DNA from: Candidatus Omnitrophota bacterium
GTDB lineage: Bacteria > Omnitrophota > Gorgyraeia > Duberdicusellales > 4484-171
Reading direction: 5' to 3'
NCBI GenBank assembly: GCA_037146775.1
Contig: JBAWWL010000008.1
Location: 6,160-70,159, forward strand
DNA: 64,000 nt
Shown: piece after piece, positions 9,668-61,406 of the stretch
Numbering within the stretch: the first letter of the stretch is position 1
Layout of the letters: every line of letters starts with the position of its first letter
Notes under the pieces: generated by a model
The model's database searches: none
The model's input: the letters and a program-made list of their open reading frames with translations, nothing else
What the model was told of the DNA's origin: nothing
Program-made: the position numbers and the translations under genes

Positions 9668-11422
9668 ATGAAAGTATTAGGCAGGGTTTATAAAGTAGTG
9701 GGCCCGGTGGTGGAGCTGGAAGCCGTAGAGGGTTTACGTATGCTTGATATGGTGGAGGTTGGCCAGGAGCATTTAGTAGGTGAGGTAGTGCACCTGAAAG
9801 AAGATAAAGCATATGTACAAGTATACGAAGAAACCACATCTCTTAAAGCAGGAGATCCGGTTTATGCCCAAGGGTTTCCTTTGTATGTTGAATTAGGCCC
9901 GGGGCTTTTAGGCAATATTTATGACGGTATTCAAAGGCCATTAGAAGATATCGCAGCCAGAGAAGGTTTTTATATCGGCAGGGGAGTACATGTTGCGGCA
10001 TTAGACAGAAAAAAGAAATGGAATTTTACTCCATCTCGACAGTGTAACGAACAGATTAAGCAGGGCGAGGCGTTGGGGACGATTCCTGAAACCGGTCTGG
10101 TTACGCATAAAATACTAGTCCCGATTGGTGAATCTGGCCGCTTAAAATGGATTGCTGCCTGCGGTGATTATTCTTTGGAAGAAAAGATTGCGGTAATAGA
10201 AACTGTAAACGGAGAAAAAGATATATATATGTATCAACGTTGGCCGGTGAGAAAGCCAAGGCCTTATCTCGAGCGGGAAGTTGTTAACGAGCCTTTAATT
10301 ACCGGGCAGCGTATTATTGATACTTTGTTTCCCGTGGCTAAGGGTGGCTGCGTAGCGGTGCCCGGAGGTTTTGGTACCGGCAAGACCGTGGTCCAGCATC
10401 AGCTGGCAAAATGGAGCAATGCCGACGTGGTTATTTTCGTCGGCTGCGGAGAACGTGGAAATGAAATGACCGATGTCTTGCTAAACTTTCCTAAGCTTAT
10501 TGATCCGCGTACAGGAAGGCCGCTGTCAGAACGAACTATATTTATCGCCAATACATCGAACATGCCGGTGGCGGCACGTGAAGCGAGTATCTATACGGGG
10601 ATTACGCTTGCTGAGTATTATCGGGATATGGGATATAATGTTGCGCTTATGGCAGATTCTACCAGCCGCTGGGCAGAGGCGTTACGGGAGTTATCGGGCA
10701 GGCTTGAAGAGATGCCGCTCGAGGAAGGATTTCCGGCCTATTTACCATCGCGTTTGGCTGAATTTTATGAGCGCGCAGGAAAAGTAAAAACATTAAATCA
10801 CGAGGATAGCTCTATTACCATCATTGCTTCGGTTTCTCCTCCGGGGGGAGATTTTTCTGAACCGGTTACTTCTCACACGAAGCGGTTTATCCGTTGTTTT
10901 TGGGCTTTAGATAAAGATTTAGCCAACGCGCGCCATTATCCTTCCATAAGCTGGATTGATAGTTATTCCGAATATCTCGATGATATTAAAGGCTGGTGGC
11001 ATAAAAATATTGATGAGGGGTGGTTAAAGTTACGTTATGAGATGATGGAGCTTTTACAGAAGGAACAACGTTTACAGCAGGTGGTTAAACTGGTTGGTTC
11101 AGACGTATTGCCGCAAACGCAGCGTTTAATCTTGGAAGTATGTTATCTTTTCAAGAATGCATTTTTGCAGCAAAGTGCTTTTGATGATGTTGACGCTTAT
11201 TCGTCAGCCCGTAAACAGTTTTTAATGTTGAAAATCATATTACAGTTTTATCATAAAGCAGAAATATTTATTAAGAAAGGAATGACCGTGACAGAAATTC
11301 GTGAAATTCCGATATATAATGAAATTATGCGCATGAAGCTTACCTATAGCGAAAATGATATTGACAAGGTGTTGGGATTACTTGGACGGATAGAAGAGTC
11401 TTTTGAAGGGTTGGGCTTCTAA
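9668..11422 (+). CDS. atpA: V/A-type ATPase catalytic subunit A
   Basis: Walker [10 protein letters not shown]. Non-homologous insert region. 584 aa. Confidence 0.9.
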
Positions 11423-23573: not shown

Positions 23574-24623
23574 ATGCCAAGATCAACTAAGAAAAAATTT
23601 GAGCGCATAACTATCAAGTCCGAGTCAGGTAGAGAAAAAGAGCCGGTCAAAATCACCGTTATCGATTACGATGAGGCAAACTTTCAGCAGAAGGAAGTTT
23701 CTTCGGTCGAAGAATGTTTTATTTTCAGAGACAGGCCTACAATAACCTGGATCAATGTTGATGGTATCCATAAGCCAGGGGTTATCGAAAAACTTGCCAA
23801 CTGTTTCTGTCTGCATCCTTTAATTATCGAAGATATATGTGATGTTGATCAGCGGCCAAAATTCGAGGATTTAGGCAGCTATATCTATATCGTTATAAAA
23901 ATGCTTTCTTATGAAGCGGAAAACAGCGAAATAAAGATTGAGCAGATGAGCCTTGTTTTAGGTAATAATTTTGTTCTTTCTTTTCAGGAGACGGTAGGCG
24001 ATGTTTTTGGGCCTATCCGGGATCGCATCAAAAATAGTAAAGGCCGCCACCGTAAAATGGGCGCAGATTATCTGGCATATTCCTTGATAGATGCAATAGT
24101 AGATAACTATTTCAACATCCTCGATGAGTTCGGTGAGCGCATTGAGTTTCTTGAAGAAGAGATAATTTCCAGGCCCGATCAGCAGGTTTTAAAAGAGGTC
24201 TATAACCTTAAAAGGGAGATTATTTTTCTGCGTAAGTCTATTTGGCCGCTGAGAGAACTTGTGCGTTCCCTTGAACGCATTGAATCAGCGTTAATCAGGG
24301 ATACCACGCGAATTTATTTGAGAGATATTTATGACCATGTAATACAGATCAGCGATTCGATGGAGGTTTCCAGGGAAATGCTTACGGCTATGATTGAAAT
24401 GTATCTATCCAGTCTAAGTAATAAGCTTAATGAAGTAATGAAGGTTTTGACGGTTATCGCCACAATATTCATGCCTCTTACTTTTATTACCGGTATTTTT
24501 GGGATGAATTTTAAATATATTCCCGGTTTAGAGCGGTTTTGGGGTTTTCCTGCCGCCTTATTGATTATGCTTATCGTGGCTTTGTTTATGATAAGATATT
24601 TTCAGAGGAACCGGTGGATATAG
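23574..24623 (+). CDS. corA: Magnesium/cobalt transporter CorA
   Basis: C-terminal two TM helices with a GMNF motif (GIFGMNFKYIP). 349 aa. Confidence 0.85.
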   Translation: MPRSTKKKFERITIKSESGREKEPVKITVIDYDEANFQQKEVSSVEECFIFRDRPTITWINVDGIHKPGVIEKLANCFCLHPLIIEDICDVDQRPKFEDLGSYIYIVIKMLSYEAENSEIKIEQMSLVLGNNFVLSFQETVGDVFGPIRDRIKNSKGRHRKMGADYLAYSLIDAIVDNYFNILDEFGERIEFLEEEIISRPDQQVLKEVYNLKREIIFLRKSIWPLRELVRSLERIESALIRDTTRIYLRDIYDHVIQISDSMEVSREMLTAMIEMYLSSLSNKLNEVMKVLTVIATIFMPLTFITGIFGMNFKYIPGLERFWGFPAALLIMLIVALFMIRYFQRNRWI

Positions 24624-24635
24624 TAATAAACAGAG

Positions 24636-24760
24636 GACAGATGACAGAAAACAGAAGACAGAGGAGATAAGGCAGATTTTTGACTTCTGACACCTATTTT
24701 CTGACTTCTGATATCTGACGTCTGACTTCTGACATCTGTTTTAATTTGGTAATCGGCCCC
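24636..24760. repeat. Inverted pair of heptanucleotide tandem arrays (RRCAGAR x5 then CTGACNT x8)
   Basis: aacagag gacagat gacagaa aacagaa gacagag ... ctgactt ctgacac ... ctgactt ctgatat ctgacgt ctgactt ctgacat. The two halves are reverse complements and can form a long imperfect hairpin just after the corA stop. Confidence 0.7.
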
Positions 24761-24873
24761 ATCGTCTTCCCGCCTGCACCCACGGTAGTGGGTTCGGCGG
24801 GATCCCGCAGAATCCGCGATAGCGGATGCATGCGGGAAGCTTAACGCTTACTGTTAGTAAGATTAAAATTATA

Positions 24874-25164
24874 ATGTGGTATGTTTATATCATCCAGAAT
24901 GATACAAACAAACGTTTTTATATAGGTTCAACCAATAATATAACCCGAAGGTTAGCCGAACATAATAGAAGCAAGAAGTGCTCTGTTACTCATTTCGGAA
25001 AATACTTTTTGATTCATCAAGAAGAATTTTCGAATATTAAAGAAGCAAGAGTGCGAGAACAGCAAATCAAATCGTATAAGGGCGGTAACGCATTCAAGAA
25101 ATTACTTCGCGAGCGCGCTGGCTTAAATATCATAAATACGGCCCCATCGTCTAGCTTGGTCTAG
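24874..25164 (+). CDS. GIY-YIG nuclease family small protein (YhbQ/UPF0213-like)
   Basis: YVYIIQNDTNKRFYIGSTNNITRRLAEHN is a GIY-YIG motif. The ORF tail overlaps the first 25 nt of the tRNA, so the true stop is uncertain. Confidence 0.65.
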   Translation: MWYVYIIQNDTNKRFYIGSTNNITRRLAEHNRSKKCSVTHFGKYFLIHQEEFSNIKEARVREQQIKSYKGGNAFKKLLRERAGLNIINTAPSSSLV

Positions 25165-25214
25165 GATGTCAGCTTCTCAAGCTGAACACACCGGTTCAAA
25201 TCCGGTTGGGGCTG
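25140..25214 (+). tRNA. tRNA-Glu (anticodon CUC)
   Basis: Manual fold. Acceptor GGCCCCA/TGGGGCT. D-stem GTCT/GGAT. Anticodon stem TCAGC/GCTGA with loop TTCTCAA. 4-nt variable loop. T-arm ACCGG-TTCAAAT-CCGGT. Discriminator G. Confidence 0.8.
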
Positions 25215-25224
25215 TTTTTATAAT

Positions 25225-26426: not shown

Positions 26427-26942
26427 ATGAAAAAGATAAAAATAACGATTATAGCCGTTGCGGCTGTAGCAATGGTTTTCTTTGGCGCGCACGATGTGCT
26501 AGCGCGCGGTGGAGGTGGAGGGCACATGGGAGGCGGCGGCGGCGGTGGCTGGCACGGCGGAGGAGGCGGTGGCGGCGAGCACGGTGGCGGTGGCGGCGGG
26601 CACGGACAAGGCGGCCACAGGCATAATAACAATAATAATTATTACTATGGCGGCGGCGGGTGGGGTTACGGATTTGATGATGAAGCTGTAGTCAACGTGG
26701 ATTTGGATACTGATTCACGGCCGTCTACTGTTGTGGTGGAGCAGCCTACTACCGAAGTAGTCCAGCAGCCTGTACCAACAGCAGATGCGCCTGTCGGAGC
26801 TCAGGTGACAATGCTTCCTTCCGGAGCTGAGGGCAGGATTATCGGCGGCGCGCAATTTTATATAAGCGGTAATACCTGGTATAAGCCGTATTTCGGTGCA
26901 AGCGGCGTATATTATGAGGTTGTATCTCCTCCGAACACTTAG
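26427..26942 (+). CDS. Secreted Gly/His-rich low-complexity protein
   Basis: Signal peptide, then (G6-7-[HWE]H) x4, HRH, N5Y3, G4WGYG, and a structured-looking C-terminal domain. ATG at 26427 with GGAGGAG upstream. The track start at 26385 is TTG. Confidence 0.6.
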   Translation: MKKIKITIIAVAAVAMVFFGAHDVLARGGGGGHMGGGGGGGWHGGGGGGGEHGGGGGGHGQGGHRHNNNNNYYYGGGGWGYGFDDEAVVNVDLDTDSRPSTVVVEQPTTEVVQQPVPTADAPVGAQVTMLPSGAEGRIIGGAQFYISGNTWYKPYFGASGVYYEVVSPPNT

Positions 26943-27312
26943 AGGATGTTGCCTTTGTTTATAAGAAAATCAAATTCATGAATAATATCATTGCGCGTAT
27001 CAGGAAAGAGCTCTTAGAGGTGCTGCCGGCGTTTATCTTCTTTGTTGTTATGTTCCACATCCTTATGGTTACAAGGGCGCTGACGCTTGTAATGCTCCCT
27101 ATTAGCCAAGGAGGTTTTAAGTTAGAAACGGCTTTTTGTTAAGATGCGTCTAGCGCAAAAATATAACCGGTTTTTAGGTAAGGAAAACGAACTTTCAAAA
27201 ACCTTAGATAGTTAAAATAAACTAATAAAGGGTAGCAAATTATGAATGTCCGCCTCTAAAGGGTGGACATTCTACATCTATTTACCTGTAAAATAGTTAC
27301 ACAATTTCAGCT

Positions 27313-27560
27313 TCAGAAATGCCGGACAAAACGGATCCTCCTTCGCTAAAGCTTCGGAGGGCAGGCATCCTTTGGCGAGGGATTGCTTCTCAAATCAGCA
27401 ATTTTCTTAATAATTTCCATATTTACCATACAACTGTTACCTATATAATATAGAGAGGATACCTTGAGGCTAATGACCAAGCCCTGCCCTTAAATTCTCT
27501 CTTAGCCAAAAGAGAGAGGCGAATAGCCATGATTACTTAAGGTGATCATGGCATTTTTTA
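27313..27560 (+). repeat. Structured repeat element copy A (137-nt identical core, TATAAT box, two hairpins, T-run)
   Basis: Core 27322-27458 is identical to 28545-28681. Then CTCTCTTagccaaaAGAGAGAG and GCCATGAT...ATCATGGC hairpins followed by ATTTTTTAT. Confidence 0.7.
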
Positions 27561-27789
27561 TCTTTCGATTTTTCAAAGAGTTAGGGCGTTATTGCCAAAT
27601 CATTCTTCTGCGGAAGCTCATTACACGACACCTGTGTGTAAAATTTCTTACAAGTAAGCCAAAAATGACCGGACAAAACAATTCTATAAAGTATTTGAGT
27701 TAGATTAGCATAGCGATTCGTATTTATTTTTTCGCCTTGACATTATGTATCAAATATGATACATTTAATACGGAAATAAGAAAGAGCCG

Positions 27790-28161
27790 ATGTTGAATTA
27801 CTACGAAAGTTTTCTGGTTTATAAAGGCGAACATTACAGCATATATTTCCATGCTGAAAGTAAAAATTCGTCTATTGTGAATGAATATTTCGAACATTGT
27901 GATGATGCTACCCAGGCTAGCCTATTGTTTCTTGCGAAGGCCATGGCCGATACAGGCCGTATTTATGATGAAACTAAATTTCGTATTGAGGATAAGCAAA
28001 ATAAGATTTATTGTTTTAAGCCAAGGCAGGAACGTTTTTTCTGCTTCTTTTTCGTCGGCAAAAAGATAATAATTACTTCGGCTTATACGAAAAAAAAGCA
28101 GAAGCTTGATAAGCGAGAACTTAACAGAGCAATAGAAATTCGTAAACAATATTTCATCTAA
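27790..28161 (+). CDS. Type II toxin, RelE/ParE superfamily (HigB/Gp49-like)
   Basis: KIYCFKPRQERFFCFFFVGKKIIITSAYTKKKQKLDKRELNRAIEIRKQY matches the Gp49-like addiction-module killer consensus. 123 aa. Upstream of an XRE HTH gene. Confidence 0.7.
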   Translation: MLNYYESFLVYKGEHYSIYFHAESKNSSIVNEYFEHCDDATQASLLFLAKAMADTGRIYDETKFRIEDKQNKIYCFKPRQERFFCFFFVGKKIIITSAYTKKKQKLDKRELNRAIEIRKQYFI

Positions 28162-28178
28162 CACTAGGAGGTATGAAT

Positions 28179-28448
28179 ATGAAAAAGTCGATATTCGATA
28201 AAAAGATGGGAAACAAGAGATTTAAAGCTATATATGACGAAGTAGCTATTGAGATGGGTATAGGAGAGCAGATTGCAAAACTAAGGCACAAAGCAAAAAT
28301 GAGCCAATTGGAGCTAGCCAGAAAAGTGGATACCAACCGGACTACCATATCGCGTTATGAAAGTAGAATGTATAACCGCTACAATTTGAGCACGTTATTA
28401 AGAATCGGAAGAGCGCTACATAAGAAATTAAAGATATCTTATGTATAA
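28179..28448 (+). CDS. XRE-family HTH antitoxin (HigA-like)
   Basis: Cro/C1 HTH (MSQLELARKVDTNRTTISRYE). 18 nt after the toxin stop. AGGAGG 7 nt upstream of the ATG at 28179. Confidence 0.7.
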   Translation: MKKSIFDKKMGNKRFKAIYDEVAIEMGIGEQIAKLRHKAKMSQLELARKVDTNRTTISRYESRMYNRYNLSTLLRIGRALHKKLKISYV

Positions 28449-28535
28449 AATTTTCTTTATACCTAAAATGTCCAGCCAAAGCAAGACGGGCAAAATTTAA
28501 CTTTTAGTTACTCAAAGAGTTATACAATTTCCAGC

Positions 28536-28800
28536 TAAAAATGACCGGACAAAACGGATCCTCCTTCGCTAAAGCTTCGGAGGGCAGGCATCCTTTGGCG
28601 AGGGATTGCTTCTCAAATCAGCAATTTTCTTAATAATTTCCATATTTACCATACAACTGTTACCTATATAATATAGAGAGGTTATCTTAGGGGTAACAGC
28701 TAAGCCCTGCCATATAATTCTCTCTCTTGGCTAAAAGAGAGAGGTGAGTAGTCATGATTGTTAAATACGATCATGGCTATTTTTATGTCTTAGAAAAAAT
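28536..28800 (+). repeat. Structured repeat element copy B
   Basis: Same 137-nt core (28545-28681). Hairpins CTCTCTCTTggctaaaAGAGAGAG and CATGATtgttaaatacgATCATG, then TATTTTTAT. Confidence 0.7.
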
Positions 28801-29026
28801 AATGAGGTCAGCCCTTGAAATGCGAAGTGTTTTAGCTCATTAGTTCTTAAGCTCATGAGTTTACGCGAGCTTTAGCTTGCAGTGTCAGGTGCCTGCGGCG
28901 GAAAAGCTGAAGAATCAAACTAACTTCTACCTTGACCACTTCACCTCCCGGCAGTAAAATACCCGCAACTTTCAACCAAATAACCGTTTCCATTATGGAG
29001 GTTGAAAATAGTTTTAATTAGTGCAT

Positions 29027-29980
29027 ATGAAAAAATATTTTCTTGCTGCATTTGTATGTGTTAACCTATTATCCGGTTTGACGTTTAACGCAATTGCTGC
29101 TCAATCTGAACAGAATTGGGAATTCAAGCTTGACTCCAAATATTTTTTCGCAAGCCATACCTCTTATCAATTCGGCAACCCATATATCGGTAGCGATATG
29201 CCATTAAGTCGGCTGGAATTTCCTATCAATAATCTTTGGATGGGCGCAGGCTTGAGGCGTAATTTTGCGCGCTATTCCATAGGGATTAACGCTTTGTCCA
29301 GTGCAATGCGTAATACCCGTGGTCGAATGAAGGATTCAGACTGGGAAAATACGGATGATCTTAGCGAAAGAACCATTTTTTCTACTTCAGCCAACCGCAT
29401 GAATTACGGCATTATAGCCGGCGGCGATGTTGATTTAAAAGTTTCTGATTGGCTTAATTTTGCGCCAAGCTTAGATATCCGGCCGCTTGTCGGTTTTCAG
29501 TGGCAGAAATTTTCTTTTACGGTACATGACGGCGTTCAGCACTATTATAGCCCGTCTGCACCTGATGACCCGCTTCCAGGAAATCTTTTAGATTTTGAGC
29601 AGGTTTATTGGCAGTATTTTGCAGGCTTTCGCAGCTCCTGGGATATGGGTCGGCCGTTTAAACTGCCTCCGCTTAAATTACTCACCGAATTTCACGGAGG
29701 CTATGTCACAGGCTACAATAAAGATCATCATTTACTTAAAGGTGACCGCTATACCTTTGAAACGACTGACGGATATTGTTTCTACGCTTCTTTAGGCTTA
29801 GAAGCGCAATTAACTAAAAATATCAGCTTAGGCACCGGCATTGATTATCTGATGATTAGGACAACCGGTAAGCATAATTGGCGGTATAATGCAGTTGGGG
29901 TAGATTCAATATGGAATAATGGAGTTAAAGTCTACTCAGACCAGATAGGCATTAACTTGAATTTGACATATAGATTCTAG
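29027..29980 (+). CDS. Outer-membrane beta-barrel protein, hypothetical
   Basis: Signal peptide. Alternating amphipathic beta-strand pattern. C-terminal ...NLNLTYRF ending in Phe, an OMP sorting signal. Confidence 0.5.
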   Translation: MKKYFLAAFVCVNLLSGLTFNAIAAQSEQNWEFKLDSKYFFASHTSYQFGNPYIGSDMPLSRLEFPINNLWMGAGLRRNFARYSIGINALSSAMRNTRGRMKDSDWENTDDLSERTIFSTSANRMNYGIIAGGDVDLKVSDWLNFAPSLDIRPLVGFQWQKFSFTVHDGVQHYYSPSAPDDPLPGNLLDFEQVYWQYFAGFRSSWDMGRPFKLPPLKLLTEFHGGYVTGYNKDHHLLKGDRYTFETTDGYCFYASLGLEAQLTKNISLGTGIDYLMIRTTGKHNWRYNAVGVDSIWNNGVKVYSDQIGINLNLTYRF

Positions 29981-30185
29981 TTCTATGCTCGCTCGTAAAA
30001 AATTAATTGAGGGGGAATTCTGGGGACACAATACTTAATTATTTGAAAATAATCCTCACCTTTGACGGGATAGAAATAATGGGGTCAGCCTTGAGTATTG
30101 GAAACTTATTGTAATTCCGGCACACACTGCCTGGTGCAAAAATTATACACATTTTTAACCACCACTTACACGAAGAATTACCTCG

Positions 30186-30340
30186 CGAATAGCCAAATTT
30201 TCTTATTAATCTCCATATTGACCATATAACTGTTACCTATATAAATAAGAGAGGATACCTTAGGGCCAATGGCTAAGCCCTGTTTTTTAACCCTTCGTAA
30301 CTATATTTGTTGCAAAGGGTTTTTTATTTAGACTAAAATT
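30186..30340 (+). repeat. Structured repeat element copy C (3' part only, diverged) with terminator-like hairpin
   Basis: About 85% match to the 3' half of the core (ttttcttattaatctccatattgaccatataactgttacctatataaataagagaggatacctta...). Then AACCCTT...AAGGGTT followed by TTTTTATTT. Confidence 0.55.
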
Positions 30341-30444
30341 AAATTTCTTACGCTCTTAAAGAGCGAGTGGTATAATTTTTATATGTATAGGGTAGATAAG
30401 GCAATGATGAGTGTGTATATGAATTGTGAGATGAAGGTGTAGAA

Positions 30445-30903
30445 GTGGATAGAAAGAAAATTATTTTTTCTTTTCTATATTTTTTTGTTTTCTGTATTTT
30501 AGCCTCCGCTCAGGACAGCGAAGACCTCAAATACAAAATAACCCCGACTATAAATAAAGAGTCTCCCTCCGGTGTTTATATCCCGAAAGATTTAGAAGAG
30601 TGTTTCAAAGAATTGAAAACTATGCTTCAGCCATCTTTAGTGGCAGAAATGAAAGCGAAGCCGGAAAAAGAGATGATTGGGTATCATCATGGACTAGGTA
30701 TGTGGATAAGAAATAACTGGGGGTTGTGGTCGGATTCCAGATTAAAAAAATATTTCAATAACTTAGGTATCCGGCATCCTGACGATATGTCTAGCATTAT
30801 TCTTAATTCTTTTTGGCGACATCTTCACAATCAACTTCTTGAGCTGGATAGGCAGATAAAATATTATCAAGAATATTGGGAAAACGTAAAGAAACAAAAA
30901 TAA
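30445..30903 (+). CDS. Secreted hypothetical protein
   Basis: GTG start. Signal peptide. 152 aa. No recognisable motif. Confidence 0.45.
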   Translation: MDRKKIIFSFLYFFVFCILASAQDSEDLKYKITPTINKESPSGVYIPKDLEECFKELKTMLQPSLVAEMKAKPEKEMIGYHHGLGMWIRNNWGLWSDSRLKKYFNNLGIRHPDDMSSIILNSFWRHLHNQLLELDRQIKYYQEYWENVKKQK

Positions 30904-32444: not shown

Positions 32445-32553
32445 CGAATTATTCAAACGAGATAATTTCTTTTCTATCCGCCGATAGCCGGACAATTGAC
32501 TCATCGTTTTGGCCCGCATTAATTTCTCTTTGCTAAACCTCCTACCATTTTAA

Positions 32554-33555
32554 ATGGCGAGTGGTATAATTAAAAAAATGAATAGTACGGTGAAGGGGAA
32601 ATTTTTTCTGGTTATTATTCTGATTGTAGCTTTGCTGCTGCCAAGAATAGCCGATTGTCAGATAAAGAAATACCGTGGCAAAAAGATACTTTATGTAAAT
32701 TCGTATCATAAGGGTTATTATTGGAGCGATGGTGAACAGCAAGGTGCCCAGAACGTTTTGGCTCCGAGTGGCGTAGAATTGAGAATAGCATACATGGATG
32801 CCAAAAATAATCCTTCCGAAGAATTCAATAAACAAGCAGGCCTAAAAGTAAAAAAGTTAATAGAGGAGTTTGAACCCGACGTTTTAATTGTCGCCGACGA
32901 TAATGCGTTTAAATATATAGTTATGCCTTATTATCGCGATGCGGATTTGCCGGTTGTATTTTGCGGCATTAATTGGGATATATCAATTTACGGCGCTCCG
33001 TACAAAAATACGACAGGCATGCTGGAGGTTGGACTTATTGAACAGGTTTATGAGCATTTGAGAAAGTTTGCTAAAGGTAACAGGATAGGTTTTCTCAGTC
33101 CTGATGTGTTAAGCGAGCGCAGGAATGGTGAATATTTTGCTCAACATATCCCGGGAGGTTTTACCTATAAAGAATATGTACCAGATTTTGAAACATGGAA
33201 AAGGAAATATCTGGAAATCCAGGACAAGGTCGATATGCTTATTTTTTCTACTCCCATTGGGGTTAAAGATTGGGATTGGGATAAGGCCGAGCAGTTTGTT
33301 TTAGAAAACATTAAAGTGCCGATAGAAGGCGATATCGGCATAGCCTTGTTTGAGATAGCGAAGATTCCCGAAGAACAAGGAGAATATGTCGCTCGAACGG
33401 CTTTGAAGATACTCGATGGTGAAAAACCGGCCAATATTCCTATTGTTAAAAACAAGAAAGGGAGCCTATGTTTAAATTTGAAAGTTGCCGAAAAATTGGG
33501 TGTTATTTTTTCTCCGGGACTCCTGAGGAGCGCGGCAAAGATTGTTCGTAAGTAA
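32554..33555 (+). CDS. Periplasmic solute-binding-like protein (ABC substrate-binding family-like), hypothetical
   Basis: Signal/TM anchor. Alpha/beta pattern resembling the type-I periplasmic-binding fold. Weak assignment. Confidence 0.3.
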   Translation: MASGIIKKMNSTVKGKFFLVIILIVALLLPRIADCQIKKYRGKKILYVNSYHKGYYWSDGEQQGAQNVLAPSGVELRIAYMDAKNNPSEEFNKQAGLKVKKLIEEFEPDVLIVADDNAFKYIVMPYYRDADLPVVFCGINWDISIYGAPYKNTTGMLEVGLIEQVYEHLRKFAKGNRIGFLSPDVLSERRNGEYFAQHIPGGFTYKEYVPDFETWKRKYLEIQDKVDMLIFSTPIGVKDWDWDKAEQFVLENIKVPIEGDIGIALFEIAKIPEEQGEYVARTALKILDGEKPANIPIVKNKKGSLCLNLKVAEKLGVIFSPGLLRSAAKIVRK

Positions 33556-39269: not shown

Positions 39270-40052
39270 ATGTTAGCTAAGCGTATTATCCCTTGCTTGG
39301 ATATTAATAAGGGCAGGGTAGTAAAAGGGGTAAATTTCGTTCAATTAAAAGACGCCGGTGATCCCATTAAAAATGCCCAGTTTTATGAACGGGAAGGCGC
39401 TGATGAGCTTGTATTTTTAGATATTACTGCCAGCTTTGAACAGCGCTCTACTACTGTTGATTTGGTACGTAAGGTCGCGCAGGTGGTATTCATGCCCTTT
39501 ACGGTAGGGGGCGGGATACGCAGTGTTGAGGACATTAGAGCGCTTTTGCGTGCCGGAGCGGATAAGGTTTCGCTTAATACCATAGCGGTAAATAACCCTC
39601 CTATTGTACGTAAAGCAAGCGGTATTTTTGGCAGTCAATGCATCGTAGTTGCTATTGATGCCAAGCGCATGCATAGCGCTAAGCGTAGGGGCAAAAGTGG
39701 AAGGCAATGGGAAGTGTATATTAATGGCGGGAGAACCCCTACTGGTTTGAATGCGTTAACGTGGGCTAAACGGGTAGAATCGTTAGGTGCGGGAGAAATA
39801 CTGCTTACAAGTATGGATTATGATGGCACGAAAGATGGATATGATATTGAGTTGACCAAAGAAATTACCGCACACGTGAGAATTCCGGTGATTGCTTCCG
39901 GAGGCGCCGGACGGATTTCTCATTTCTATGATGTATTTCATGACACAGGGGTGTCTGCGGCACTCGCCGCCTCTATCTTTCATTATCGGGAAATTCGAAT
40001 AAAGGAAATCAAAGAACAATTAAAAGCGAAAGGAGTTGAGGTGCGTACATGA
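39270..40052 (+). CDS. hisF: Imidazole glycerol phosphate synthase cyclase subunit
   Basis: RIIPCLDI...KGVNF N-terminus. (beta/alpha)8 HisF signature. 260 aa. Confidence 0.9.
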
Positions 40053-40486
40053 AGAAACCAGAGACCAGAAACCAGAGGACAGAAGTCAGAAGACGGAAGA
40101 CAGAGGTCAGAGGTCAGAAGTCAGAAGACAGAAGACAGAGGACAGAGGACAGAAGGCAGAGGGGAAAGATAATAGTTCCGAAGTTAAAATTTGACGAAAA
40201 GGGGCTTATCCCTGCAATCGTTCAAGATGTAAAAAACGGCGATGTACTTATGATCGCTTATATGAATGAAGAGTCTCTGCGTATCACCTTGAAAGAAAAA
40301 AGGACTTGTTTTTATTCTCGTTCGCGCCAAACCCTGTGGAGAAAAGGCGATACCAGCGGGCATATCCAGAAAGTGAAGGCTGTGTGCTATGATTGTGATT
40401 GCGACGCGCTTCTGATTAAAGTTGAGCAAACAGGCGTGGCGTGTCACACTGGAGAGAGCAGCTGTTTTTATAGAAAAATTATTTGA
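40049..40486 (+). CDS. hisI: Phosphoribosyl-AMP cyclohydrolase with N-terminal heptamer-repeat-encoded extension
   Basis: HisI core [15 protein letters not shown]...C-x-x-C metal site. The first ~35 codons are a 15 x 7-nt repeat array encoding [21 protein letters not shown]... The true start could be downstream and non-canonical. Confidence 0.75.
40055..40159 (+). repeat. Heptanucleotide tandem array (15 units; aaaccag/aggacag/aagtcag/aggtcag...), 105 nt in-frame
   Basis: Direct reading. Same repeat family as 24636-24760 and 60612-60671. Confidence 0.75.
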
Positions 40487-60543: not shown

Positions 60544-61406
60544 GCACACGTGTTGCGTTTAAGAAAATGGTCGCCTCGGGCAACGACTTTGTTCTTTTGG
60601 AGGCCGGGAGTAAGAAGTCAGAAGTCAGAGGTCAGAGGTCAGAGGACAGAGGACAGAGGTCAGAAGGTAGAGCGTTGAGCAGTTTAGCGAAAAAAATGTG
60701 TGATAGGAAATACGGAATTGGAGCAGACGGATTATTGGTCATGGAAACGTCAAAAACCGCGGATGCAAGAATGCGCATTTTTAATGCTGACGGGTCAGAG
60801 GCCCAAATGTGCGGGAATGGCGCACGCTGCGCTGCTTTGTGGGTAAACGAGAAATTAAGAATTAAAGACAGGAGATTAAAGATAGAAACCAAGGCAGGCC
60901 TCTTAAGAGCGGAGGTCTCTGGTGAACAGGTGCGGATACAGCTAACCGACCCCAAAGATGTCAGGTTACATGTGCCTATTACGGTAAACAACCGGCCGCT
61001 TAAGGTTCATTTTATTAATACCGGCGTACCACATACAATTATTTTTGTTGCAGGTATCGAGTTGATCGATGTGGATGGCCTGGGCCGATTAATCCGTCAT
61101 CATCGTTATTTCAAACCAGCGGGAACAAATGTTGATTTTGTACAGGTATCCGGCGATGATCTTATAAGGGTACGTACGTACGAGCGTGGAGTTGAAGCGG
61201 AGACTCTTGCGTGCGGTACCGGATCGGTCGCGGCGGCAATCATGTACAGTTATCAACTCCCGGTCCGTAACCGCTACCACATAAAAGTATTGACTCAGGG
61301 CGGCGAAGTATTGAGTGTTTATTTTGAAAAAAAAGATAATGCATTTATAAATGTGTGGTTGGAGGGGAAAGCCCGGAATGTATTTGAGGGAGGTTATTAT
61401 GTTTAA
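60540..61406 (+). CDS. dapF: Diaminopimelate epimerase with 20-aa heptamer-repeat-encoded insertion
   Basis: ASGNDFVLL and NADGSEAQMCGNGARC catalytic Cys motifs. Insertion [21 protein letters not shown] lies between the first strand and the GIGADG region. Confidence 0.85.
   Translation: MSTRVAFKKMVASGNDFVLLEAGSKKSEVRGQRSEDRGQRSEGRALSSLAKKMCDRKYGIGADGLLVMETSKTADARMRIFNADGSEAQMCGNGARCAALWVNEKLRIKDRRLKIETKAGLLRAEVSGEQVRIQLTDPKDVRLHVPITVNNRPLKVHFINTGVPHTIIFVAGIELIDVDGLGRLIRHHRYFKPAGTNVDFVQVSGDDLIRVRTYERGVEAETLACGTGSVAAAIMYSYQLPVRNRYHIKVLTQGGEVLSVYFEKKDNAFINVWLEGKARNVFEGGYYV
60612..60671 (+). repeat. Heptanucleotide tandem array (about 8.5 units; aagtcag/aggtcag/aggacag), 60 nt in-frame within dapF
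   Basis: Direct reading. Same family as 24636-24760 and 40055-40159. Confidence 0.75.

Follow-up and report, generated by a model that had tools for sequence, protein, structure and literature searches.

Adjacent small-RNA genes arranged head to tail, each with its own promoter and intrinsic terminator, are known as the OmrA/OmrB pair of E. coli and the PrrF1/PrrF2 pair of Pseudomonas. Integrase-mediated islands accrete beside tRNA or small-RNA genes and are accompanied by direct repeats of the target. In Vibrio chromosomal integrons, higBA and other toxin-antitoxin (TA) cassettes sit between the attC repeats (VCRs), where they are thought to guard the array against deletion (PMC5543033). The attC site has the structure of an imperfect palindrome (PMC2727003) of 55-141 nt between an R'' (RYYYAAC) and an R' (GTTRRRY) element, and cassettes that lack a gene and carry a promoter have been described in the superintegrons of Vibrionaceae (PMC11014356). 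TA genes are also carried by the dif (pdif) modules of Acinetobacter plasmids (PMC6449649).

The locus described here lies in a 64-kb stretch of an Omnitrophota genome, the whole of which is referred to below as the window. The sizeable open reading frames (ORFs) of the window are all on the + strand and encode mostly housekeeping functions, such as a V-type ATPase, SecDF and the biosynthesis of arginine, lysine and histidine. The locus is situated 3' of the tRNA-Glu(CUC) gene (25139-25215), and from unit A on its G+C content is 34-41% in comparison to 42% for the window. The repeated units occupy a variable, low-G+C stretch downstream of tRNA-Glu(CUC). Tandem 7-nt arrays of the GACAGAG / GTCAGAA type were seen at gene boundaries of the window (24605-24740, 40040-40190 and 60586-60700), and similar heptamer repeats lie 5' of tRNA-Glu in the related locus L013. 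A 171-aa predicted secreted protein with glycine runs broken by histidine (GGGGGGH repeats) is encoded at 26427-26942 and adjoins a DUF2092 periplasmic protein. The features of the locus are listed in Table 1.

Table 1. Coordinates of the repeated units, the TA module and neighbouring features in the window
Feature	Position	Strand	Details
Unit A	27266-27561	+	left flank S0 27266-27332; core 27322-27458; transcribed part and terminator ~27456-27561
Core of A	27322-27458	+	137 nt, identical to 28545-28681
Sigma70-like promoter of A	27422-27449	+	TTTACC, 16-nt spacer, TATAAT; 10/12 consensus matches
Putative RNA A	27456-27561	+	~105 nt; 5' hairpin, hairpin 2 27496-27518, terminator stem 27526-27552, T run
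S1	27550-27679	+	partial copy of the unit left flank; starts in the A terminator tail
TA segment	27680-28488	+	809 nt; 34% G+C vs 42% for the window; conserved block 27721-28449
TA promoter	27737-27765	+	TTGACA, 17-nt spacer, TACATT; overlaps palindrome ATGTATCAAATATGATACAT at 27745-27764
Toxin gene	27793-28161	+	122 aa; Pfam PF05973 Gp49/DUF891, HigB-type, RelE/ParE superfamily
Antitoxin gene	28179-28448	+	89 aa; HTH_3 (XRE type), E=4.7e-8, above cut-off
Unit B	28489-28787	+	left flank S2 28489-28555; core 28545-28681; promoter 28645-28672; putative RNA B ~28679-28787
Unit B terminator stem	28746-28782	+	
22-mer AAATAATGAGGTCAGCCCTTGA	28797-28818	+	directly after the B terminator
Omptin-family outer-membrane protease gene	29027-29980	+	between units B and C
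Second copy of the 22-mer	30074-30094	+	20/22 columns match
Unit C	30196-30330	+	promoter block and 5' hairpin 30196-30282; own terminators up to ~30329

The initial annotation had claimed a second full copy of a structured element downstream of the TA genes, and this copy, unit B, is real. Units A and B are 87.6% identical over 275 columns (27291-27561 vs 28514-28786, blastn E ~1e-92) and share an exact core of 137 nt, beyond which the identity is 64.5% leftward and 64-87% rightward. If the 34 differences were randomly placed over the 275 columns, the chance of a difference-free run of at least 137 columns would be ~2e-9. A third, partial member of the family, copy C (30196-30282), is 85-86% identical to A and B and is placed 3' of the omptin gene and 5' of a DUF6794 gene. 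No further copies beyond A, B, C and the fragment S1 were present in the 64-kb window.

Scans for the exact pattern AACTGTTACCTATATAANNNAGAGAGG gave 0 hits in both GTDB representative genomes and JGI metagenomes, blastn comparison of the unit with plasmids and phages gave no match, and units resembling A, B or C were absent from the relatives of the TA module that were examined. A covariance model built from A and B and applied to 17 related loci returned a single weak, terminator-driven hit in L017 and otherwise only A, B and C. The repeated element appears to be an orphan, without a homologue beyond this genome in the databases and loci searched. As a separate observation, the left half of the A/B core (…TCCTCCTTCGCTAAAGC…CAGGCATCCTTTGGCGAGGG…, window 27340-27400) has the short motifs CAGGCATCCyTTGGC and TCCTCCGCTACGC in common with repeats flanking the TA genes in L017 (3600-3640 and 4300-4345). 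This likeness was noted by eye, lies below blastn significance and may reflect a broader repeat class.

The core is composed of a 78-nt hairpin-prone left segment, which is missing from C, followed by a 59-nt promoter block that is common to C. Folding of the left segment was no better than that of shuffled sequences (z = -0.35). The promoter block, i.e. the rightmost 59 nt of the core, is AT-rich and carries a sigma70-like promoter, matched in B by the same TTTACC, 16-nt spacer and TATAAT (10/12 of the consensus) and in C by TTGACC (30218-30223), a 16-nt spacer and TATAAA (30240-30245). In all three copies AGAGAGGAUACCUU follows ~7 nt past the promoter and is succeeded by a small hairpin. A and B continue with hairpin 2 (UCUCUCUU/AAGAGAGA), after which a strong hairpin and a T run form the terminator; C carries terminators of its own. 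As judged from sequence matches only, each unit therefore has a promoter and an intrinsic terminator bracketing a short non-coding region.

The ~105-nt putative RNAs folded far better than their shuffled controls, with z-scores of -4.1 for A and -4.9 for B. None of the 30 predicted base pairs is broken between A and B, compensatory double changes preserving 3 of them and wobble pairing 2, despite an identity of just 64-87% in the transcribed part, and the A-B substitutions cluster at unpaired positions. When C was added to A and B, the 5' hairpin displayed no compensatory change (2-3 sequences, one genome). With two or three sequences to compare, the conservation of structure among the units is suggestive, not proof. 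The Rfam covariance search brought only tRNA above the gathering thresholds; two matches at E up to 5 were far below threshold and implausible.

The small ORFs found in the units are without conservation between copies. A peptide role was rejected for the 9-codon ORF after the RNA start, for a 24-aa ORF on the minus strand and for a 29-aa ORF, all of them unconserved between copies. The last of these is present in the public annotation as a 29-aa gene (window 28754-28843) that falls within the terminator of unit B. It is probably a false call, because copy A has no counterpart, a stop being encountered after 3 codons.

We read A, B and C as tandem head-to-tail paralogues of one small-RNA-like, hitherto unannotated gene. 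The units might instead be cis-acting leaders that provide a promoter and a conditional terminator or attenuator to the omptin and DUF6794 genes: B and C each precede a gene on the same strand, and hairpin 2 has a UCUCUCU arm that is complementary to the 5' AGAGAGG, which allows alternative folds. We regard this as improbable, given that A precedes S1 and a self-promoted TA module and so has no gene to control, that no Rfam riboswitch or leader was matched even at E up to 5, and that no conserved leader peptide was found. Moreover, promoter-like sites follow the unit terminators, one per downstream gene (27737-27765, 28932-28960 and an extended -10 at 30368-30376). The downstream genes have such sites of their own, and therefore the units look like independent transcription units rather than leaders.

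The toxin encoded between A and B matches Pfam PF05973 with E=7.3e-8 (32.8 bits, cut-off 23.9) and, weakly, the solved HigB structure 6af3 (E=0.14); its plasmid homologues are annotated as RelE/ParE toxin. The antitoxin gene starts 18 nt past the toxin stop, so that the toxin comes first, in the reversed gene order. By toxin family, antitoxin family and gene order the pair can be assigned to the HigBA-like type II TA modules. The palindrome ATGTATCAAATATGATACAT overlapping the TA promoter is kept in relatives and is presumed to be a candidate operator for the antitoxin. The TA pair had been described as sitting exactly between the two copies. It does lie between them, off centre, at ~230 nt after A and 65 nt before the start of the B homology. 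It had likewise been noted that a partial start of copy A recurs at 27660. The recurrence was confirmed and reassigned: the 18-mer AAAATGACCGGACAAAAC, which has exactly two occurrences in the 64 kb (27662 and 28538), belongs to copy B, whereas copy A begins with AGAAATGCCGGACAAAAC.

The fragment S1 that contains the upstream 18-mer carries a 55+8-nt insertion and terminates at ...GGACAAAAC, precisely where the TA segment begins. S1 and S2 are 82% identical (55/67), and their last 23 nt reach 96% identity (E=4e-6 for a search space of 900 x 900 nt); S0, which flanks A on the left, shows only 61-66% identity to S1 or S2 (66% for S1). S1 and S2 duplicate the left flank of B, one on each side of the TA segment. 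A cassette-like signature does exist at this boundary, which differs from the ends of A and B. Since S1 starts in the terminator tail of A, the simplest history would be one in which the A-B tandem came first and the TA segment was inserted into it, duplicating ~67 nt of the B left flank, with S1 gaining its 55+8 nt after the duplication. Alternatively, the TA genes could have replaced the body of a further unit, of which S1 would be the left flank.

The history of the core was analyzed by an incongruence test on an 87-nt block common to A, B and C, 59 nt of which are inside the core and 28 nt outside. A and B differ at 0/59 positions inside and 9/28 outside, A and C at 7/59 and 5/28, and B and C at 7/59 and 6/28. 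Outside the core, A and B are thus no closer to each other than either is to C. The gene conversion that had been suggested in the initial annotation is upheld by this incongruence, and the identity of the 137-nt core is best explained by recent homogenisation of two old paralogues. Selection alone would be insufficient, for this promoter block has diverged by 12% in C. With 18% divergence between S1 and S2, their duplication is older than the homogenisation of the core, so the exchange would have happened across the TA module without deleting it. This fits either non-crossover conversion or selection against crossovers that remove the antitoxin gene. Two identical direct repeats of 137 nt at a distance of 1,223 bp would plausibly serve as a substrate for homologous recombination.

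The sequence comes from a metagenome-assembled genome, and the 137-nt core is a break point in an independent short-read assembly, as might happen if the TA genes had been misplaced between collapsed repeats or were present in some cells only. Such an assembly artefact or mixed population is very improbable. The tails of A and B differ at many positions, which indicates two real copies. A 1,146-bp contig with the TA genes (L006) runs into the core at both ends, and the published arrangement is the only linear path including it, because the flanks of the two cores differ.

More than 250 relatives of the toxin were found at 69-89% amino-acid identity, many of them on contigs of ~1 kb, and the HigBA-like family is very common in Omnitrophota; viral contigs gave no toxin relative. 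DNA homology to the relatives is limited to 27721-28449, that is from just 5' of the TA promoter through the antitoxin stop, with an identity of 81% for L011-L016, 78% for L017 and 71% for L020. Repeats of the A/B/C type do not accompany the family in L011-L016, L017, L019-L021, L026 and L027. In L011 and its variants L012-L016 the genes are ordered LPG synthase, NYN, lactamase_B, CorA, tRNA-Glu and TA, with the units absent, and in some samples (L013, L015) the TA genes lie ~215 nt past tRNA-Glu. Because relatives have the TA module in the same CorA/tRNA-Glu neighbourhood, it is either old at this position or repeatedly drawn there, while its surroundings vary. A homologous TA module is also found elsewhere, next to tRNA-Val in L017.

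Local direct repeats were detected around the TA module at 4 of the 10 loci that could be judged, one of them being S1/S2 of the window, in comparison to ~3% of control positions in the same sequences; the other 6 were without a flanking repeat. The cleanest candidate for a target duplication is that in L020, where a perfect 46-nt direct repeat (9867-9912 and 10755-10800) containing the promoter of a hycI-like gene flanks the TA genes 5' of hycI. In L021 an exosortase gene (EpsH) harbours the TA module in its 5' end; codons 1-9 of epsH occur on both sides (1245-1269 and 2100-2124; 25 nt, 88% identity), with a new ribosome-binding site for the downstream copy. In L017 an ~80-nt element in three copies flanks the TA genes. 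The flanking repeats of these loci are unrelated to one another in sequence, the cassette arms beside them are unconserved between loci, and their length varies from 23 to ~80 nt, as opposed to the fixed-length target duplication of transposons.

Several further arrangements were observed among the related loci. In L026 (2780-3662) the TA genes lie between def and fmt without a flanking repeat, and the antitoxin stop overlaps the fmt start (TCATGA). The operator palindrome and part of the promoter are duplicated 5' of the TA genes in L019 (2294-2313 and 2380-2399, 86 nt apart). An ~85-nt intergenic element (GGGTATTAGATTCTTCAGCGCCC...) occurs three times around an alpha/beta-hydrolase gene in L008 (8850-10010). 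Dispersed intergenic repeats can thus mimic cassette-flanking repeats, and some flanking repeats are such elements and not scars. Comparison of L011 (3546-5888) with L013 (92-274) revealed a 1,977-nt Ank/TPR segment between 183-nt direct repeats of 94% identity. The 183-nt repeat starts in the 3' end of tRNA-Glu, and in other samples the Ank/TPR segment is missing and a single repeat copy is left. This presence/absence polymorphism adjoins the homologous TA module in a related Omnitrophota species.

Repeats also surround single genes other than the TA pair at the locus. The 22-nt repeat pair listed in Table 1 flanks the omptin gene, the closest relatives of which (79% and 60% identity) are found in unrelated contexts, without the repeated element. 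The omptin gene appears to have been placed between B and C by the same kind of insertion as the TA module. At the upstream end of the region a GIY-YIG gene (ORF 24826-25164; Pfam E=1.5e-14) lies between exact 14-nt repeats CGGCCCCATCGTCT (24754-24767 / 25139-25152) that correspond to the 5' end of tRNA-Glu. In L013 and L015 heptamer repeats abut the tRNA directly and the GIY-YIG gene is missing. The gene looks like an insertion into the tRNA gene, with an intact tRNA restored downstream. A 38-nt repeat with 79% identity (window 30340-30377 and 32534-32571), in which an extended -10 (TGgTATAAT) comes after a hairpin that shows compensatory changes between the copies, brackets the DUF6794 gene and genes for 130-aa and 345-aa proteins. 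The second copy is located just 5' of the start of an ABC substrate-binding gene, which is probably leaderless.

It is tempting to bring these cases under one mechanism, and we put it forward as a doubtful speculation: recombinase-free cassettes of Omnitrophota may enter the 5' edge of transcription units and duplicate a 14-80 nt target, which would restore the promoter or the 5' end of the gene downstream of the insert. The HigBA-like module, the GIY-YIG gene inside tRNA-Glu and possibly the omptin gene would be examples of such insertion, with the A/B/C array acting as a landing pad. Such a route would fit none of the transposon, integron or integrase-island types that were considered.

No integrase, transposase or other recombinase was found by Pfam among the ORFs of the 64-kb window; nearly all ORFs of at least 120 aa were assigned to unrelated Pfam families and a few were without a match. 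Terminal inverted repeats were found neither at the unit nor at the TA boundaries. A copy of the tRNA-Glu 3' end was not found near the TA genes in the window with up to 3 mismatches allowed; repeats derived from the tRNA end are present in the relative L011. A search for an Xer/dif pair around the TA genes yielded a single weak ATAA-N7-TTAT palindrome at 28438, without an upstream partner. The palindrome overlaps the stop of the antitoxin gene; in relatives the right arm is unconserved.

These results bear on the earlier proposal of a mobilisable TA cassette that has A and B as its ends. In a specific form, A and B would be direct-repeat ends between which a single crossover within the 137-nt segment reversibly releases a circle of 1,223 bp, comprising the tail of RNA A, S1, the TA genes, S2 and the core. 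Identical 137-nt direct repeats do lie on both sides of the TA module, and one crossover between homologues that had diverged would suffice to produce a core without differences and tails that differ on both sides. The SRR12676968 short-read graph (Logan) breaks exactly at the core (L004, L006, L002) and is compatible with both integrated and deleted forms, and the Ank/TPR segment with its 183-nt repeat is present in one relative (L011) and absent from another (L013). We nevertheless judge excision of this kind unlikely. The conserved TA block leaves out the repeats, a relative has the module in the same tRNA-Glu neighbourhood without them, S1/S2 mark a different boundary, and the 64 kb contain no recombinase, attC pair or terminal inverted repeat at the places examined. 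The association of A and B with the TA module is largely contradicted from two directions, the TA family occurring without the repeats in other Omnitrophota and the repeat family, as B and C, flanking the omptin gene without TA genes.

An integron-like array, or an integrase-less attC cluster in which A, B and C would be species-specific attC sites, is hardly credible at this locus. The layout does resemble that of chromosomal integrons with a higBA-type module between similar repeats (PMC5543033), and promoter-bearing cassettes without a gene are known from Vibrionaceae superintegrons (PMC11014356). A regular-expression search of 26901-30600 on both strands revealed no RYYYAAC...GTTRRRY pair at 50-150 nt spacing, and the window encodes no integrase. 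The units consist of three local hairpins and a promoter, not of one imperfect palindrome, the TA module has its own promoter, and the cassette boundaries are direct and not inverted repeats.

The explanation that we favour, and hold with about even confidence, combines small-RNA-like paralogues A, B and C with a separate insertion of the HigBA-like module into the left flank of B and a later conversion of the core. Each unit would have AT-rich sequence upstream and a sigma70-type promoter driving a transcript of ~40-105 nt, which runs from AGAGAGGAUACCUU to the intrinsic terminator, and the product would most likely be a family of trans-acting small RNAs sharing their 5' end. The HigBA-like module would be a cassette complete in itself, from promoter and operator to toxin and antitoxin, and its position between A and B would stem from an insertion into the left flank of B that left S1 upstream and S2 downstream as an ancestral duplication of ~67 nt. 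Gene conversion across the cassette would later have homogenised the 137-nt core. If the two cores crossed over, a 1,223-bp segment with the TA genes would be deleted or excised, and loss of the antitoxin gene would be expected to penalise such a deletion, which may explain why the repeats persist around the TA genes.

To our knowledge no small RNA has been described for the uncultured Omnitrophota, and the three-copy promoter-RNA-terminator family provides a concrete candidate. The combination of S1/S2 at 18% divergence with identical cores suggests that a chromosomal TA module can sit for a long time between recombining repeats, in line with the view that addiction modules shield the DNA beside them against deletion. 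The most interesting thread is that local targets are duplicated recurrently, both around this TA family and around further single genes of the locus. Should the local repeats go back to a real insertion mechanism, accessory genes would have a new entry route into the streamlined genomes of Omnitrophota.

When the locus is set beside the known systems, the TA cassette resembles the pdif modules, which are small, TA-only and recombinase-free and lie between short recombination sites; it differs from them by the missing pair of Xer-type sites and by its chromosomal setting. Like tRNA-linked islands, the region lies 3' of a tRNA gene, tRNA-Glu(CUC), and tRNA-derived repeats are seen as the 183-nt repeat of L011 and the 14-nt repeat around the GIY-YIG gene of the window. 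Unlike such islands it has no integrase and no tRNA-derived repeat by the TA module of the window, and the repeats, of 14-183 nt, are host-specific. With the Vibrio integrons it shares an array of small cassettes in which a HigB-type TA module is enclosed by similar direct repeats specific to the species. In contrast to attC sites, the units are without attC core sites, a single palindrome or an accompanying integrase, and they contain a promoter, a putative RNA and a terminator.

The putative small-RNA units have no sequence or Rfam relationship to OmrA/OmrB or PrrF1/PrrF2. They differ from these pairs in that protein-coding cassettes lie between them and that the perfectly conserved part is the upstream region and not the RNA. 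As in OmrA/OmrB and PrrF1/PrrF2, the 5' end of the putative RNA is conserved and the rest has diverged, and homogenisation between the copies is plausible.
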